Positions 7,897-60,951 of a stretch of DNA of 64,000 nucleotides are shown here, one piece after another; the stretch's first letter is position 1, and each line of letters opens with the position of its first letter. Source of the DNA: Escherichia phage AV123. Where the stretch lies: sequence record OR352953.1. One strand, 5' to 3'. Under the pieces are notes generated by a model. That model was not told the origin of the DNA. It was given only the letters and a program-made list of their open reading frames with translations, and did no database searches. The translations under genes were made by a program, and so were the position numbers.

Positions 7897-8033
7897 ATTT
7901 TCTCCTATCTCTTATGGTCTTTGCGTTATTCTAGATGTTCAAACATCTAATTATGAAATGGTTTAAAAGTGCGGAACAACCTTGGCAATCACAGATTGTT
8001 CCACATAAAAACTCCTTTAAAATCAAATAGATA

Positions 8034-44419: not shown

Positions 44420-45409
44420 ATGACAGCACCAAAATCATGGGAACAATATAAAGAAGAGTGTATACCAATAGCAGAGAGTAAGCAAATCCAAATCTTAGGA
44501 TGGACGGGACAATGGAAAGGGGTCCACACAAAACTTGATTTGTTGTGCCATTGTGGTTATAAATGGGATACTACAAGTATTAACAGTTTTAAATGTGGTA
44601 GCGGTTGTCCACAATGTAGGAGGAAGAATATAAGGAAGTCACAAACAATGTCCGACGATCAACATATTGCAGATTTCTTTTCTACAGGGGAATTTAAGGA
44701 AGGCACTATCTTCACTAACACAGGAACACGGGGTAAAGGATGTAGGAATATTATCTGGATGGTTGAATGTCCTGTTTGCTCTCATGATGAATATGTTCAA
44801 GCAGGTGTTTGTGATGGTAAATTTTACTCTGAAGGAGATAACCTTAAACGAGGGTATATTCCGTGTCGTTGTGGGAACTATCGGTATACAGAAGACCAGA
44901 TCACCTATAGGGTAAAAAAGGAAGTAGAAGGGAAAGGGTATGTCTGGGTAGATTGGATTACCAAACCCTCTTCTATAGGTAAGTTTAAATATCTTTGTCT
45001 TGTGCATGGTGAGCAGATAGGGAGTGCTAATAATTTATTAAGCCTCGGTCGAGGTTGTCCTATGTGTGCTGGTCATAGTCAGCAGCAGTTATATATTAAT
45101 ATTGTTAAGGATGATAATATTATAGTTGCTCTTAAGTTTGGTATAGCTAAAGATAGTGATAGGCGATTAAACATTCAAAATAGCCGTAATCTGTTTTTTA
45201 TGGAACGTATTTGTTTATATGATTTTAGCACAGTGAAACAGTGTAAGGCTGCTGAAAGAGCTATAAAGAAAAAATTAAAAACTGGTATTTTAACAGCAAG
45301 AGAGTTGAAAGACGGTCATACAGAAACAGTAAGTGTTTCTGATTTGGAAAATCTTCAAAAAATTATTACACAATATGGTGGCAAGTTAGTATACAATAAG
45401 GAGGTGTAA
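44420..45409 (+). CDS. Multi-zinc-ribbon protein with C-terminal T5orf172 (GIY-YIG-like) type region
   Basis: At least four CxxC pairs; C-terminal LYINIVKDDNIIVALKFGIAKDSDRRL resembles T5orf172 core. Confidence 0.4.
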   Translation: MTAPKSWEQYKEECIPIAESKQIQILGWTGQWKGVHTKLDLLCHCGYKWDTTSINSFKCGSGCPQCRRKNIRKSQTMSDDQHIADFFSTGEFKEGTIFTNTGTRGKGCRNIIWMVECPVCSHDEYVQAGVCDGKFYSEGDNLKRGYIPCRCGNYRYTEDQITYRVKKEVEGKGYVWVDWITKPSSIGKFKYLCLVHGEQIGSANNLLSLGRGCPMCAGHSQQQLYINIVKDDNIIVALKFGIAKDSDRRLNIQNSRNLFFMERICLYDFSTVKQCKAAERAIKKKLKTGILTARELKDGHTETVSVSDLENLQKIITQYGGKLVYNKEV

Positions 45410-45961
45410 ATGCGGATTACTGATAAGTATGTGTTCTTCTTTTCAGCAAAAGATGAATTTAGCAACTGGTATCTATCATCTTTTATTGAACCTTTAGCAC
45501 CCAAGTATAATAATTCTATTACAAGTTCTGTTGAATTTACTTGTGTGGAACAATATATGATGTGGAGAAAAGCATGTTTGTTTTATGATTACAGTATTGC
45601 ATCTTCTATTTTAACCGGAGATCTAAGATATACAGGAGAAAAAGAACAAGCATATTATAAGCGACTAGGCAGATTAGTTAAAGATTATGATGAAGATACC
45701 TGGACTTCTTTACGGGAGAAGATTGTCAAACGTGGTTTGTATCTTAAATACACACAAAATGAAGATCTCAAAAATAAACTTATAACCTACGCAGATAAGG
45801 AGTTCGTAGAGGCAAGCCCTTATGATTCTATTTATGGTATCAAAATGGGGATGTGGGATCGTGACGTGGAAAATAAGGACTGTTGGAAAGGACAAAATCT
45901 TTTAGGAAAATGGCATACAGACCTTGCTGTTTATCTAAAAGCACAATCTGATATTTCCTGA
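45410..45961 (+). CDS. NADAR (YbiA-like) domain protein
   Basis: FFFS...SNWY...F...EQYMMWRKA...LGRLV...EASPYDSIYGIKMG...GQNLLGK matches NADAR signature blocks. Confidence 0.65.
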   Translation: MRITDKYVFFFSAKDEFSNWYLSSFIEPLAPKYNNSITSSVEFTCVEQYMMWRKACLFYDYSIASSILTGDLRYTGEKEQAYYKRLGRLVKDYDEDTWTSLREKIVKRGLYLKYTQNEDLKNKLITYADKEFVEASPYDSIYGIKMGMWDRDVENKDCWKGQNLLGKWHTDLAVYLKAQSDIS

Positions 45962-46177
45962 TATTTTGAAAATTTTTATTTTTATAAAAAGGGGTGTGGG
46001 TTTCATGTACGGAAATTCACCCTCTGAATAATATATTCAGAGTAAATATTATTTTGTACTCTGTTAATAAATTATTTAATTTGTTTGTTGGATTATGATA
46101 TCTGGTTTTTAAAAGGCATACTATCTCTTAACTACTATTTATAACAGAACAGTAAAATCATTTTTATAAAAAGGACA

Positions 46178-46390
46178 AAATTATTTAAAGTTTTTACAGA
46201 TTTTTGGATACAAATTTTGAAAATGAAAAGTTCAAGTTTGGTCAAAATTATTTAAAGTTTTTGTATGTATTTCTATCCAGATTTTGAAAATGAAAACTTC
46301 AATTTTTTAAAAATTCCCCAGTTTATTTAAAGTTTTTTTGCCTTTTTCCGTAGAAAAATCAAAAATGAAAAGTTCAATTTCGTGTTTTTA
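46178..46390. repeat. Three tandem direct repeats (66-78 bp units)
   Basis: AAATTATTTAAAGTTTTT...TTTTGAAAATGAAAAGTTCAA recurs at about 46178, 46244 and 46320. Confidence 0.6.
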
Positions 46391-46394
46391 TAGG

Positions 46395-46510
46395 TGTGTT
46401 AATGAGAATCATTTTCGTTTGTAAATGAGAATCATTATCATTTAACTATGTAAGTGATAATCATTCTCACTAAGAGAATGAGAATCATTAGCAAATGAGA
46501 ATTTTTCTCA
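46395..46510. promoter_or_regulatory. Cluster of Fur-box-like palindromes
   Basis: AATGAGAATCATT (46401), AATGAGAATCATTATCATT (46424-46442), GATAATCATTCTC, and perfect inverted repeat AATGAGAA-TTT-TTCTCATT (46492-46510). Confidence 0.5.
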
Positions 46511-46774
46511 TTTAGAGAATAACGCGCAGGGGTGGTGTTTGTCTCGCGCTCCCGTGTCCCCTCGCCATACAATAAGAATAGCATAACCAACAACAAAAGC
46601 AAGCGATTATTTTTATCTTTACATTTCTTTACAAATTTATTTTAGACGAGCTACCAGCGATCAACCTTCCAACCAGTGCCCCCTGGTATGTTAGCCCCGC
46701 CTTTACGCCGTGGGGATGGCGCTTCCTCTTCTGTATGTAAAACAGTATAAGCCCGATCCCTGGGCTTGTCAAGA

Positions 46775-47041
46775 TTATTTTTTGTTTTCTTGCCAGGATA
46801 GGACACCTAACCAAAAATACATGTCGCCCCGCGCCCCTGGCGGGATCTTGCTTTCCCCGCCGCCACTGCAAGCCCATAGATAACCATTTGCGAACGTATC
46901 AAAATGATCTATTTCTTCCACCTTATGATCGCCCAGGTTGAGAACGGTTTCAACCTTTAAGCCCGTTGCGCTTGCTACCTGGTGCACCGTGCCGCCTTGC
47001 CAGCCTAATGAGTGCATGAGGTGTGAAGTAGTATTTGTCAT
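46775..47041 (-). CDS. Hypothetical protein, GC-rich gene on opposite strand
   Basis: AAAGAAAGGGCG leader and GCGCC...GGCGC hairpin upstream on - strand; GC-rich codons. Confidence 0.45.
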   Translation of the reverse strand: MTNTTSHLMHSLGWQGGTVHQVASATGLKVETVLNLGDHKVEEIDHFDTFANGYLWACSGGGESKIPPGARGDMYFWLGVLSWQENKK

Positions 47042-47246
47042 GGTATCGCCCTTTCTTTGATGTGCGCCCTGGTTGGCGCGGTAGAAAGATAATAGCCCTT
47101 TCCTTTATAGATAGCAAGCAAAAAAGAAATGAAAAAAAGATTAAAAAAGGGGTTGACGGTTGGAACGATTAACGCTATTTTGTTAGCCGTTCCAGTGTGG
47201 ATCACTGTAGCAATTGTTGTTTCAATCATTCTATAAGGCGCACACT

Positions 47247-47529
47247 ATGAGCAAGGTAATTAATCATAAAGAGTTAAACCCTACCCTTTCAATGAGTGAA
47301 TGTACCGATGGTTTTTGGCTGTATGATGATACGCGCGGTATGAATTTAGCCATGCGTGAAAAAAACAGAAGAGGCGGCGTATATTAAAGCCCTGGGCTAC
47401 TATCAGGAGCGATTAAAGGAAGTAGAAAACAATTATAATAACCTAAAAGCAAAAGTAGATCACTTTATCAGCCAGGTAGCTCATGACGACGATGATCACT
47501 ACTGCGAACAATGTGGATCATATAGTTAA
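47247..47529 (+). pseudogene. ORF interrupted at an A7 run (possible +1 frameshift or sequencing error)
   Basis: Frame from ATG 47247 stops at 47385-47387; downstream frame is open to 47527-47529 and reads as a coiled-coil continuation; A7 run at 47359-47365. Confidence 0.35.
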
Positions 47530-47547
47530 AATTATCTAAAAATATTC

Positions 47548-47607
47548 TTGACAACGTTTTTTAATCTGATAAGATGTAACAAATAAGGCGGGAAGTGGTT
47601 TCCCACC
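47548..47607 (+). promoter_or_regulatory. Sigma70-like promoter plus leader hairpin (PeSL-like cassette)
   Basis: TTGACA 47548-47553, -10 TAAGAT, hairpin GGCGGGAAGTGGTTTCCCACC 47587-47607, then RBS and ATG 47633. Confidence 0.55.
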
Positions 47608-47632
47608 AGGCAATCAAAGAAAGGGTAACACA

Positions 47633-47995
47633 ATGAGCAAGCAAATCAATACTATCATGTTAAACCTGGTATCTTTCCGCGATGACGTGAAAAACCTTCC
47701 GCGTGATGCAGTGGATGCACGGATCGAAAGCTATCGCACACAGATCGCAACATTACCGTTAAAACGTGATCAACATGCCGCTAATATGATGCTTGATGCT
47801 ATGATTAAAAAGATGATTCAGTGTGATATTACCCTGGCTTATGAATATGCTGGCGATCTATTTGTAACATACAATAAACCCGTTCCAGGTATGAGCACAA
47901 CCGAAGAATTGCATGCCTTAAATCTGAGACAAGATGCATGGGATAACATGCGCCGTGTTATGGTATGGGTAGAAAGCGGCAAAATTTACGCGTAA
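47633..47995 (+). CDS. Hypothetical protein
   Basis: AAAGAAAGGG RBS after cassette. Confidence 0.55.
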   Translation: MSKQINTIMLNLVSFRDDVKNLPRDAVDARIESYRTQIATLPLKRDQHAANMMLDAMIKKMIQCDITLAYEYAGDLFVTYNKPVPGMSTTEELHALNLRQDAWDNMRRVMVWVESGKIYA

Positions 47996-47998
47996 AGA

Positions 47999-48051
47999 TT
48001 GACATTGCACTAAAACCTGATAAGCTATCTTAAAGCGGGAACTATTCCCGC
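47999..48051 (+). promoter_or_regulatory. Promoter plus leader hairpin
   Basis: TTGACA 47999-48004; hairpin GCGGGAACTATTCCCGC 48035-48051. Confidence 0.5.
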
Positions 48052-48070
48052 TTACATAGGATAAAACTTT

Positions 48071-48217
48071 ATGAAACAATATGTAATGAGTATTCACACC
48101 AAAAACGGCGCTACTGTTACGACTCCGGCACGGTTTGCACTTGTAAACCGTTGCAAAAGACTAAAACGAGAGCTAAAAAACAACCGTGCAACGGGCTTTA
48201 AACGCTGGGGAGGATAA
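48071..48217 (+). CDS. Small basic ORF (48 aa), not in track
   Basis: ATG 48071 after hairpin; stop 48215-48217. Confidence 0.3.
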   Translation: MKQYVMSIHTKNGATVTTPARFALVNRCKRLKRELKNNRATGFKRWGG

Positions 48218-48219
48218 TC

Positions 48220-48480
48220 TTGTTTTTTCTAAAAGTTTTTGATAATGTGATCGCTTTTGAACATGCTACAACGTTCGACCTGGCGAGATACGCTATCAGG
48301 TTTAAAGATAATGTTTATCCCCGTGCTGGCGGCGGTTACACTATTTTTAATCATCGCAACGCGCAACTAACTGATATAACTAATCCAGATCCTGGAGTGT
48401 ATCGGATAGGCTGGCTACCGTCAAAAGATGCGGCAAGCATGTTTAAGGTATGTAAACTACTAACAGAAGAGGCGAACTAA
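48220..48480 (+). CDS. Hypothetical protein
   Basis: TTG start 8 nt after GGGAGG. Confidence 0.45.
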   Translation: MFFLKVFDNVIAFEHATTFDLARYAIRFKDNVYPRAGGGYTIFNHRNAQLTDITNPDPGVYRIGWLPSKDAASMFKVCKLLTEEAN

Positions 48481-48481
48481 C

Positions 48482-49036
48482 ATGGGGCGTGAATATGTGA
48501 TCCAGTCCTGGGTAAAGCATGATGCTAATGATCCGCGCATAATACCAGATGACATGATCGATCACATGGTAGGGTATAGCGGGGAGCAGATAGGAAATCG
48601 AGCGGCAAAGAGCAACGGCAACACCAGGACGCGATCCGTTCGCCCTGGATGGCTGGCAAATGGTAACGCTGACATTGCAAGCGCCGCAGATCCAAGCGAT
48701 GACGCTAAAAATAATCCCTTATACAGTATTGATCCGGCTTTTAAGGTGTTGGAAGAGTATCCCGCTAAATTAGCCGCACTAGATAAAGCATACGAAGAAA
48801 AACGGGTGGCATGGACTGTATACAACACCGCTAAAATGGTGCTAGATGCAAAATTGATTAAAGCCCAGGAGAAGATCAATAAACTTGTTACCATAGCGCG
48901 AGAGGAAGACCAGGACGACCAGGAGGAAGAGGAAGAAATCATGCCTAACCTGGAAGAGGAAGAGATCCAGCCATACACGCCGACAGAAGAGGAAAAAATA
49001 CAAGCCTTAAAAAATTATAAAAATTGTATTGTGTAA
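48482..49036 (+). CDS. Hypothetical protein with acidic E-rich C-terminal region
   Basis: Coupled to upstream (TAACATG). Confidence 0.5.
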   Translation: MGREYVIQSWVKHDANDPRIIPDDMIDHMVGYSGEQIGNRAAKSNGNTRTRSVRPGWLANGNADIASAADPSDDAKNNPLYSIDPAFKVLEEYPAKLAALDKAYEEKRVAWTVYNTAKMVLDAKLIKAQEKINKLVTIAREEDQDDQEEEEEIMPNLEEEEIQPYTPTEEEKIQALKNYKNCIV

Positions 49037-49039
49037 GGC

Positions 49040-49095
49040 TTGACATATGCAAACAAGCCCCGTAATATGTACCACATAAAGCGGGGCAACGCCCC
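49040..49095 (+). promoter_or_regulatory. Promoter plus leader hairpin
   Basis: TTGACA 49040-49045, 17-bp spacer, TAATAT 49063-49068, hairpin GCGGGGCAACGCCCC 49081-49095. Confidence 0.55.
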
Positions 49096-49117
49096 ATAAG
49101 GTGAAATAAAAAATCAC

Positions 49118-49145
49118 TTGACACCTGAAATCAGTAAGCTATAAT
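49118..49145 (+). promoter_or_regulatory. Consensus sigma70-like promoter
   Basis: TTGACA 49118-49123, 16-bp spacer, TATAAT 49140-49145. Confidence 0.6.
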
Positions 49146-49182
49146 GCTTATATAGATTGAAACATTACTAAGGAATAAAAGC

Positions 49183-49362
49183 ATGGCTATTATTGCAAAG
49201 ACTGAGATCGTAGGTTTAGATTCTATCATCCTGGCATATGAGGAAGCTATAGAAATGTATGTGGTTTCCTATGGTGATTATATCCGTGAATATAAATCTA
49301 TTGATCTAGCTTTTGAATGCTATATTCGCCAGGTCAATAAAGCATATGATGATTATCGTTAA
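49183..49362 (+). CDS. Small ORF (59 aa), not in track
   Basis: AAGGAA RBS; sits behind two tandem promoters. Confidence 0.4.
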   Translation: MAIIAKTEIVGLDSIILAYEEAIEMYVVSYGDYIREYKSIDLAFECYIRQVNKAYDDYR

Positions 49363-49381
49363 AAGTTTTAGTCTTGTGCTA

Positions 49382-49411
49382 TTGACAACGAACGATAGTA
49401 CAAGCATAATA
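49382..49411 (+). promoter_or_regulatory. Sigma70-like promoter
   Basis: TTGACA 49382-49387 and CATAAT about 17 bp downstream. Confidence 0.45.
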
Positions 49412-49457
49412 ACTTTTATCGGGAATACTCCTAACTAATCAAAAGAGATTAAAGACT

Positions 49458-49823
49458 ATGGCTAAAAATATCAATGTTTCTGCTTATGCTACCCTGGCTA
49501 ACACTGCTAAAATTGAACTATCCAGCATTGAAGCGGTACATATTAGCGCCCGTCGCTGGTTTCAAAAGTCTTATGGTAATACTTATTTCTCTTTGATGGT
49601 TGACGTTGAGATCGGCGGTAAACTGATTGAAGTCGTTAACGTTCCGTTTCAATATGGTTATGGTGATCATTTTGATACCGTTGCCCTAGAAGAGTTTAGC
49701 AAGGTTATCAACCTGGAAGGTAAAGAGTTTTCAAATTATGCATACCTTTCCCGTTTTTGCCGTGATAATGGGATCGCTGTATACAGTCATGCAAGCGATG
49801 TTAAACGTAAAAAAGATTTATAA
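49458..49823 (+). CDS. Hypothetical protein
   Basis: AAGAGA RBS. Confidence 0.5.
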   Translation: MAKNINVSAYATLANTAKIELSSIEAVHISARRWFQKSYGNTYFSLMVDVEIGGKLIEVVNVPFQYGYGDHFDTVALEEFSKVINLEGKEFSNYAYLSRFCRDNGIAVYSHASDVKRKKDL

Positions 49824-49829
49824 AAAGCA

Positions 49830-49887
49830 TTGACAGCACGAATAAAAAGCATATAATACTTATATCGAGAGCGGGAATAGTTCCCGC
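49830..49887 (+). promoter_or_regulatory. Promoter plus leader hairpin
   Basis: TTGACA 49830-49835, TATAAT 49852-49857, hairpin GCGGGAATAGTTCCCGC 49871-49887. Confidence 0.6.
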
Positions 49888-49911
49888 CTCACTGAAAAAG
49901 AGATTAACATC

Positions 49912-50151
49912 ATGGCTAAATCTAAAATGTTCTTAGGTCACAAAAACAAAACTCATTGGAATGTAAGCCTTTGGATCAACAACGATGAAGGTTTTTATAA
50001 TCTTGCGCGTGAATTTATCGCAGCTAACACCAATAAGAATGACGCAGCGCGGGATATGATGTTATTTCTTGAAAGTATGGATCAAGATAAAACGCCAGAC
50101 GGATTCAAGTTCAGTAAAACCGCGATCCGTGCCGCTATGGTTGGAATGTAA
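49912..50151 (+). CDS. Hypothetical protein
   Basis: AAAGAG leader. Confidence 0.5.
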   Translation: MAKSKMFLGHKNKTHWNVSLWINNDEGFYNLAREFIAANTNKNDAARDMMLFLESMDQDKTPDGFKFSKTAIRAAMVGM

Positions 50152-50246
50152 AGGAGGTATAAAAATGAAACATCGTTCGACCTATCTCACAAAACGTTTT
50201 AGCTTAGATCATAAGTTAGGCTATTACGGAAGAAATAGAAAATAAT

Positions 50247-50306
50247 TTGACACTGTTTAAAATTCTGGTATAGTTTATCACATAGGGCGGGAAATGGTTT
50301 CCCGCC
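50247..50306 (+). promoter_or_regulatory. Promoter plus leader hairpin
   Basis: TTGACA 50247-50252, TATAGT, hairpin GGCGGGAAATGGTTTCCCGCC 50286-50306 (9-bp stem, 3-nt loop). Confidence 0.6.
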
Positions 50307-50328
50307 AAATCAAAGAAAGGTTATCATT

Positions 50329-50556
50329 ATGGCTATCGTTATTGTTCGCGTATCCGGTACGGTTGGAAGCTCCCAGGTAGTAGCAGTTATCACAGAGAAG
50401 AAAGGGGATGATCTTCACTCCTCCTTGAATAGCTGGGCGGTCGCTAACTTTGGGCAATGGTCGAGCGTTGAGTACATCGAATCCTACCAGGTGCCAACGA
50501 TTAGCCTAACCGATCTAAATGTTGATCGCTTGTTGTGCCTGGATCAATTAAACTAA
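50329..50556 (+). CDS. Hypothetical protein
   Basis: AAAGAAAGG leader. Confidence 0.5.
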   Translation: MAIVIVRVSGTVGSSQVVAVITEKKGDDLHSSLNSWAVANFGQWSSVEYIESYQVPTISLTDLNVDRLLCLDQLN

Positions 50557-52478: not shown

Positions 52479-52781
52479 ATGAACGGCATAGCTAAAACGT
52501 TTTTTCTTTTTTCTGGTGTAAATGATCCATCAATAAAAGTCGATAGTGTAAAAGAAAACAATACTATCACCGCTAAATTGTTTCAAGATGAAACAAATAA
52601 CGTGCTAATCATTAATCTTAAAGAAATAACGAAAGGTTATTATACTATTGCTTACCATGCAATCTATCGTGCTGGTACTAGTGAGGAAGTGCAAACAAGC
52701 AACAACGAAAGCGCGGCACTACCTGGTGATCTGGTGCTGGGCGTTATCAGTTTAATTGTCAATGATTTTTTTAAGGAGTAA
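52479..52781 (+). CDS. Hypothetical protein
   Basis: AAAGGAGAA RBS. Confidence 0.5.
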   Translation: MNGIAKTFFLFSGVNDPSIKVDSVKENNTITAKLFQDETNNVLIINLKEITKGYYTIAYHAIYRAGTSEEVQTSNNESAALPGDLVLGVISLIVNDFFKE

Positions 52782-55962: not shown

Positions 55963-56305
55963 TATTCTTTTTCACAATGGAAGCGACACGTAAAGAATAG
56001 GCGTAAAGGTGGCGTAAAACCATCTAAAACCGACTGTAACCGCTTAAACAAGGTAGGAATGATTAATCACCTTACCAGGATGAAAAAGCTGTTATAAAGC
56101 TATCTAGAGCGTTTAAAGCACATAGGAAATAATTTGCTTTTTATCTTGCCTTTTATCCTGCTTTTGATTATTATTATGGAACGGGCGGCACCTGGGGACA
56201 GGGGAAGATAATCACCGGAAGATCCCGCTATATATTAATAGCTAATACCTATCAAACAACAAAACATCAAAGGAATAAACTATCAAATCTTTACAATCCT
56301 ACCTA

Positions 56306-59987: not shown

Positions 59988-60440
59988 ATGTTTGAAATTG
60001 GTAAAGTGTATCGTTTTAAAAACCCATCTTATATCCGTAAGTTTGCTAACGTGTCTGAGTGCAATAGCAGGATTGCTTCTTTTTTAGGTGATTCCTATTT
60101 TCGTGTATTAGATGTGGATGATTGGTATGGTGTCACTGCTTTGCAATCCTTAGCAGGAGAACAAGAAATTATCGCTCAAAATGAAGGAGACTTTCTTCAG
60201 TGTTACACGTTGCTTGCAAAAAGTGAGTTTGAGTATTTTGTAGAAGTTTTAGAGGAAGCACCAAAAAGTAAACACGAAGAGAAATACCTGCTTGTAGTGG
60301 ATGGAGTTCCGATCATGGAAACCATCTCCCGTGAGGAAGTTGAAAAAGAGGCGAAACGTTACAAGCTGAATCGTACACAGAGTGTAGTTGAAGTCTATTC
60401 TCTTGTTGGTGTTGCAGATATTAGTGTGAACATTGTATAA
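59988..60440 (+). CDS. Hypothetical protein
   Basis: AAGGAG RBS. Confidence 0.5.
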   Translation: MFEIGKVYRFKNPSYIRKFANVSECNSRIASFLGDSYFRVLDVDDWYGVTALQSLAGEQEIIAQNEGDFLQCYTLLAKSEFEYFVEVLEEAPKSKHEEKYLLVVDGVPIMETISREEVEKEAKRYKLNRTQSVVEVYSLVGVADISVNIV

Positions 60441-60651
60441 TATATGTGTAATGACAGATACATTCTTCGTGTATCTGATAAGTCCCCTATGTTTGACTGG
60501 CGGGCTGGTGGCTACTAGCTCCGATGCAAGGTCTGACAGACGTGGAAAAGGAGGCTTATGTGTATACAAAAGAAGAGATAGAAAGTAGCCTTTATTTGAC
60601 AGATAACATTAAGAATGGTATCTTTGAGTGTAAATTGAAAGGAGAGGAAGA

Positions 60652-60951
60652 ATGACTATTACAGAAAAACTGCGCTGTATTGCAAAGCAAAGTGGAGAAG
60701 GCTTATGGTTTCCTATTGAGGAAATTATTCAGGACTGTTATGATCAGGCTAAGACTGGCAAATACTCCAAAGCATTTAAACCATCTGTTTTCGGTTTGGA
60801 TGATTATCCAAAAAATGAACAAGCAAAGAAACGACAAGTTGATTTGATTGATCTGGCTATGGAAGCACTACGAGAGCATGGACTTAGTAAGGTGTATGCT
60901 TTAAACACCAAAGAGGGCTTTGTAGATTCAGTGATCGTAGACTGGTATTAA
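60652..60951 (+). CDS. Hypothetical protein
   Basis: AAAGGAGAGG RBS. Confidence 0.5.

Follow-up and report, generated by a model that had tools for sequence, protein, structure and literature searches.

The locus analyzed in this work lies on the + strand of a 64,000-nucleotide stretch of the Escherichia phage AV123 genome (GenBank OR352953), hereafter referred to as the window, in which positions 47247..47529 harbor a disrupted ortholog of phi92 gp225 (phrog_19040, with a weak match to DUF1033). The whole disrupted gene spans 283 nt, against 282 nt in its close relatives. Its first frame opens at ATG 47247-47249, reads MSKVINHKEL...AMREKNRRGGVY and ends at TAA 47385-47387, the whole product being MSKVINHKELNPTLSMSECTDGFWLYDDTRGMNLAMREKNRRGGVY. 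A putative Shine-Dalgarno-like AGG, detected from the sequence, is found at 47236..47238 (+ strand), 9-11 nt 5' of the ATG, and its position coincides with that of the annotated ribosome binding site of Phi92_gp225 in FR775895.2. The resulting 5' piece (47247..47387, + strand, frame 0) comprises native residues 1-39, which constitute the beta-sheet part of the protein, followed by seven out-of-frame residues (NRRGGVY) and the TAA. The junction peptide thereby reads ...AMREKNRRGGVY in the truncated product and ...AMREKTEEAAYIK in the native one.

The +1 frame is closed by a TAG at 47347-47349 and, from 47350, stays open up to the TAA at 47527-47529. This 3' piece (47350..47529, + strand) encodes family residues 40-93, including the long helix, an acidic tail and a C-terminal CxxC. 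From ATG 47247 to this second stop there are 283 nt, a multiple of three plus one. The two frames meet at a tract of seven A (47359..47365, + strand) carrying a one-base insertion. Each of the 14 close orthologs tabulated has A6 at this site, and the more distant orthologs have A5, A4 or A2. Runs of seven A are scarce in the window (two, versus 37 A6 runs), and the second of them (47132-47138) has the same length in the closest relative. The start (ATG 47247), the stop (47385), the open +1 stretch (47350-47529) and the A7 run (47359-47365) had all been placed at these positions by an earlier sequence-only reading, and all hold. That reading had also described the +1 frame as lacking a start codon and a ribosome binding site of its own, which is correct as regards the latter, since no Shine-Dalgarno-like sequence precedes it, but not as regards the former, since GTG 47356, the sole ATG/GTG/TTG in the open +1 frame, is a possible start.

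Both pieces belong to one Phi92_gp225-family gene

At the same place, the phages cardinal, SKA64, ECO340P2 and phi92 each carry one annotated 282-nt CDS, named Phi92_gp225 in phi92. The DNA alignment of the window with these four genomes contains a single gap, located inside the A-run, where the relatives have A6 and the window A7. The coincidence of the A-run with the frame junction, to which the sequence-only reading had drawn attention, is therefore not due to chance, as the single-base gap falls exactly in the run. Deletion of one A yields a protein of 93 aa (the repaired protein), and this protein matched the phrog_19040 profile over positions 1-94 of 94 (E 2.5e-54), the separate pieces mapping to positions 1-41 (5' piece) and 38-94 (3' piece). 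The proposal that the two pieces form a single gene split at the A-run was thus borne out by a repaired product that spans the whole profile. The Pfam DUF1033 model also matched the repaired protein, with 26.7 bits (cut-off 25) over residues 17-92, a region that spans the junction.

The search of 5.8 billion protein clusters retrieved 177 homolog clusters of the repaired protein, the closest representative sharing 98% identity with it. Among the best 120 of these 177 clusters, 118 have lengths of 81-105 aa and no split half of the gene was present; the two short ones correspond to a shorter start call (78 aa) and to a fragment at a contig end whose sequence runs on across the junction (52 aa). 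The junction was free of gaps in a 50-sequence family alignment, with invariant columns on either side. The AlphaFold2 model of the protein (mean pLDDT 88) forms one compact unit with four beta-strands (residues 4-38) and one long helix (41-80), and the frame break falls at the joint between sheet and helix. When the repaired protein was compared with the PDB using Foldseek, no significant match was obtained (best E 0.24).

The Phi92_gp225 family, labeled 'DUF1033 family protein' by NCBI, has orthologs in phAPEC8, PD114, SKA64, cardinal and the jumbo phage SP27. An intact member of this family would be a single ORF of about 82-105 codons; the window copy is not encoded in one ORF, but once repaired it matches the family profile over its full length. 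Both short ORFs are one gp225-family gene, of which the window copy is a disrupted member. The family protein is predicted from the structural model to be a 93-aa protein comprising a four-stranded beta-sheet and a long helix, often with a C-terminal CxxC. The existence of two independent short genes was rejected, because both pieces fit one profile and one fold and the only start available to the 3' piece is a GTG without a Shine-Dalgarno.

Genomic context and dispensability of the gene

The gp225-family gene opens a rightward block of early genes and adjoins a divergently transcribed gp224 homolog. Most Justusliebigvirus genomes lack it, their matches covering about 21-23% of the query, namely the flanks, and in EmilieFrey an unrelated 273-nt gene occupies its position (window 47158-47562 compared with 47832-48455 of L015). 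Orthologs are nevertheless distributed through Phapecoctavirus, jumbo Asteriusvirus phages (SP27, 347 kb) and a Vequintavirinae phage (W70), the last two at 73-79% nucleotide identity, and this distribution suggests that the gene has been exchanged between unrelated E. coli phages. The gene is an exchangeable and dispensable accessory cassette. As an accessory cassette of the early region absent from most of the genus, its loss can be tolerated by the phage.

The downstream edge of the cassette is formed by a candidate strong sigma-70-like promoter (TTGACA, 16-nt spacer, TAAGAT with TG) with a GC-rich hairpin 3' of it, both identified by consensus scan at 47548..47607 (+ strand) and assigned to the next gene (47633-47995). 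The 5' arm of the GC-rich hairpin (47587-47607) bears the motif TAAGGCGGG, which recurs on the + strand of the small early-gene block, in front of further small early genes, at 47584, 48031, 49077, 50283, 53840, 54061, 54686 and 56343. On both strands together, 14 matches to this motif were counted versus 4.6 expected. These sites look like promoter/stem-loop cassette boundaries and could mediate gene shuffling.

The extra A in comparison with relatives

BLAST comparison with GenBank phages placed the window among the phi92-like E. coli myophages of the Stephanstirmvirinae (Justusliebigvirus/Phapecoctavirus), with 96-98% identity to ALITA, outra, EmilieFrey and VEcB. We tabulated 21 orthologous DNA loci, taken from GenBank phages, from IMG/VR and from metagenome assemblies of ENA/Logan. 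In all of them (21/21) the gene is one uninterrupted ORF with a length of 282-288 nt. Measured by its longest A-run, the site has A6 in 14 of these loci, A5 in one, A4 in five and A2 in one, and A7 in none. The orthologs of W70 and KP13-16, beyond these 21, are likewise annotated as single CDSs.

The nearest sequences differ from the window by almost nothing else. The exact repaired 93-aa protein is present on 10 contigs, and seven metagenome contigs encoding exactly this protein are identical to the window over the gene and 60 nt on each side, except for the extra A. The extra A is also the sole difference between a 147,661-bp contig from ERZ27280411 and window positions 44424-50495, and between a Logan contig and the window over 1395 nt. 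No substitutions separate the gene from these near-identical contigs elsewhere in its length, and because no other change has accumulated around the insertion, it must be either very recent or not real. Among ~15 billion proteins, a single one equals the truncated 46-aa product, namely WPK37415.1 of Escherichia phage AV123 itself, and a look-up of contigs found no assembly encoding it. Pattern scans allowing A5 to A9 detected only PD06, with A6, in IMG/VR; the scans of JGI metagenomes and of GTDB genomes yielded no additional allele. A second independent sequence with A7 was found in none of the collections searched. The extra A is a single-base insertion private to the AV123 record.

Some of the host labels encountered among the relatives appear inconsistent. 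Four records labeled 'Campylobacter phage' with host C. jejuni (MG065639, MG065645, MG065656 and MG065689) share ~98% identity with this group of E. coli phages over the 301 nt that were compared, and 'Pseudomonas phage PsgM04F' bears a gp225-family ortholog identical to that of phAPEC8 at the junction codons. The 'Campylobacter' and 'Pseudomonas' labels of these records are probably wrong or the result of contamination.

Other disrupted genes in the window

A second small gene of the window, at 60433-60655, is also frameshifted. Here a run of three G (60502-60504) corresponds to G4 in 55 GenBank relatives, and the change from G4 to G3 splits a conserved CDS of 213 nt/70 aa (inny_226; cardinal XLQ98141.1) into the ORFs 60433-60588 and 60524-60655. 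Among the 110 EmilieFrey genes projected onto the window, this one (projected at 60444-60655) was the only one with a real frameshift, and it is shared with the lineage: the G3 looked private against the 55 GenBank phages but is common to two metagenome contigs, ERZ27280411 and Logan ERR2241665, whose source may be one and the same sample. Since it is shared with these contigs, the G3 represents a real, naturally persisting lineage mutation, which indicates that homopolymer slippage inactivates small early genes of this lineage in nature.

Two other differences from EmilieFrey were recorded along the window. At 7983-8004 the window lacks about 500 nt, comprising most of bas61_0041, a 198-aa hypothetical gene directly downstream of the DNA polymerase gene, and the neighboring gene starts seven codons later in the window. 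At 56100-56267 (- strand), the EmilieFrey CDS bas61_0139 (55 aa) has a premature stop that involves no indel, although the gene call itself is doubtful.

Origin of the insertion

The insertion is an ordinary, non-programmed one-base homopolymer insertion that disrupts a conserved small phage gene. Most likely, with a probability that we put at roughly 60%, it arose recently by replication slippage in an accessory early gene that the phage can do without. According to this explanation, the A6 tract of the Glu-Lys-Thr codons (GAA AAA ACA) would have gained one A through replication slippage on the homopolymer (the Streisinger mechanism), very recently, either in the AV123 lineage or in the laboratory stock. 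The expected outcome would be loss of function, with the 46-aa stub retaining the beta-sheet part, lacking the helix and ending in seven wrong residues, and with the 3' piece presumably not translated to any meaningful extent. The sequence-only reading had listed programmed frameshift, phase variation and sequencing indel as the options. What remains is a plain one-base insertion, which may be either a real mutation, an origin that reading did not list separately, or an error of sequencing or assembly.

The main rival is an artefact, in which the phage DNA would have A6 like its relatives, with the extra A confined to the deposited consensus and the gene intact and ordinary. An artefact of this kind is a possibility to be taken seriously, though a distinctly less probable one than slippage. 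Only this record has the extra A, against seven contigs that otherwise match it exactly, homopolymers are the commonest sites of indel miscalls, and a single difference in 6 kb from the nearest relative would look the same for an assembly error as for a very recent mutation. At very high coverage, a de novo assembly can occasionally get the length of a homopolymer wrong. On the other hand, consensus-level miscalls of homopolymer length are not expected from Illumina MiSeq at a run of 6-7 nt. AV123 was isolated from broiler faeces, sequenced by Illumina MiSeq (2x250, Nextera XT), assembled de novo with CLC Genomics Workbench and annotated automatically by RAST, with manual curation not described (PMC10844046); the platform was thus not 454, Ion Torrent or Nanopore. 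In the window, which contains 83 A6/T6 runs and six longer runs (>=7 A/T or >=6 G/C), five of the six longer runs could be matched in relatives, and besides the A7 in question they agreed except for one intergenic T7/T8 difference. The latter is a T7 at 52766-52772, also T7 in EmilieFrey and T8 in two metagenome contigs (L019 and L020), which appears intergenic and lies directly 5' of an AAGGAG Shine-Dalgarno-like motif; it adds a further case in which near-identical genomes differ in homopolymer length. No other gene, among the 110 projected from EmilieFrey, bears a frameshift private to the AV123 record. Neither an error-prone platform nor several such errors in the 64 kb accompany the insertion, and a general signature of homopolymer error in the assembly was discarded on the basis of the gene projection and the long-run check. 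The MiSeq platform together with the shared frameshift at 60502-60504 tilts the balance toward a real slippage mutation, and we infer that the extra A is present in the phage DNA, not only in the assembly, and arose by replication slippage.

If the A7 is real, a full-length protein could in principle still be made by programmed or leaky recoding, either because tRNA-Lys slips +1 on A-AAA-AAA-C or because RNA polymerase drops one A, both of which would give the wild-type ...REKTEE.... A +1 slip of tRNA-Lys from AAA 47361-47363 to AAA 47362-47364 would restore full pairing and yield the native sequence, two rare AGA codons (47367-47372) follow shortly 3' in frame 0, and systems are known in which an indel in an A-run is partly rescued (PMC1088944, PMC5009743). 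However, the two-ORF layout occurs in 0/21 orthologs, and the tract itself is not conserved, being replaced by GCG AAG AGC, GCA AAG ACA or GCT AAA ACC in more distant orthologs; because these use other codons, the A6 run is simply what Glu-Lys-Thr codons spell in one subgroup. The surroundings are equally unfavorable: a Shine-Dalgarno-like stimulator is absent upstream, shuffled versions of the 101-nt region mostly fold as well as the region itself (148/200; z +0.72), so that no downstream structure is apparent, the codon beside the slippery Lys is AAC, which is neither slow nor a stop, and the AGA pair lies one codon too far 3'. No tRNA genes were found beside the locus. A programmed +1 frameshift, for which one would expect conservation of the split layout and of a shift site, a slow or stop codon directly 3' of that site, and stimulators, was therefore rejected in view of the non-conserved layout and site, the missing stimulatory structure and the wrong codon geometry; every ortholog is one uninterrupted ORF with at most A6, contrary to this option of the sequence-only reading. 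As for the polymerase, slippage of the E. coli enzyme needs at least seven T and still more A (PMC6260861), and functional slippage sites have nine A, or eight A in a few organisms (PMC1088944). Designed transcriptional slippage would call for about 8-9 or more A/T, conserved together with overlapping ORFs, but the run is A7 only here and A6 or shorter elsewhere, and it was rejected on the grounds of run length and non-conservation. At best, a percent-level leak would be expected from recoding at the A7, and recoding as an explanation of the locus is highly improbable.

Even less probable is phase variation, in which the A-tract would serve as a contingency locus whose frequent length changes in phage populations turn the gene on (A6) or off (A7). 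Such switching classically acts on homopolymer tracts, and the change seen here is a one-unit change in length. Typical contingency tracts, though, are longer than 6-7 nt, and the tract-length polymorphism that marks a contingency locus was seen neither in the close orthologs nor in the A5-A9 scans. The tract is A6 in 14/14 close orthologs, isolates and metagenomes alike, IMG/VR, JGI metagenomes and GTDB genomes yielded no A5, A7 or A8 allele, and the truncated product is a singleton among the ~15 billion proteins. The tract is a by-product of the Glu-Lys-Thr codons that is lost in distant orthologs, and it is not special, as the window holds 83 other A6/T6 runs. Phase variation was thus rejected for the lack of length polymorphism in the 14 close orthologs, IMG/VR, JGI metagenomes and GTDB genomes; the ortholog comparison speaks against this option too, with no second A7 allele in any collection searched.

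There is also a small chance, slightly above those given to recoding and to phase variation, that the allele has consequences of its own. Either the extra A would be real and selected, with loss of the gp225-family protein helping the phage on its isolation host (ESBL12), for instance because a trigger of host defence would be gone, or the allele would be leaky, with low-level native protein made via +1 slippage of tRNA-Lys or RNA polymerase slippage on the A7. If the leaky reading were true, AV123 would be a lytic phage in which a 'leaky' frameshift allele has arisen naturally.

Returning to recent replication slippage as the preferred explanation, no new mechanism is involved and the kind of event is already known. 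The interest of the locus lies mainly in its annotation: WPK37415.1, recorded as 'hypothetical protein', represents one half of a disrupted gp225-family gene, and the sequence that follows, which carries no annotation, represents the other. The record calls for a label of frameshifted gene or pseudogene at this locus, or for a correction should the reads show A6. Taken together with the G4 to G3 change at 60502-60504, the insertion indicates that phi92-like phages lose small accessory genes of the early region by homopolymer slippage without visible cost.

Comparison with known systems

The closest known counterpart of the gene is Phi92_gp225, which has the same length as the repaired protein (93 aa) and shares 83% identity with it. 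In both genomes the gene adjoins gp224/gp227 homologs and is preceded by the same ribosome binding site; unlike the members of the Phi92_gp225 family, the window copy has its reading frame broken after codon 39.

The layout of the locus, with overlapping ORFs at a slippery-looking run where a +1 slip gives a sensible fusion, resembles that of the prfB +1 site, the A-AAA-AAG of dnaX, the A9 of Thermus dnaX, the A9 runs of IS elements and the G/GT sites of phage tail-chaperone genes. Programmed frameshift and slippage systems, however, have a conserved split and a conserved slippery site, both of which the window lacks, and here stimulators are absent and the run is shorter. A second likeness is to homopolymer indel errors in deposited phage genomes, which also appear as a single-base length difference, restricted to a single record, that splits a conserved gene; in the present case the platform was MiSeq and the rest of the window is free of such a pattern. 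The locus also agrees with Streisinger slippage, for which A-runs in the rII and lysozyme genes of phage T4 are hot spots, as a one-unit expansion of an A-run within the coding sequence of a lytic E. coli phage leads to a truncated product. In AV123 it is the result of the event that is seen, not the event itself, and nothing in it is distinctive. The change from G4 to G3 at 60502-60504, which is common to natural relatives, gives a second example of such slippage within the same window.
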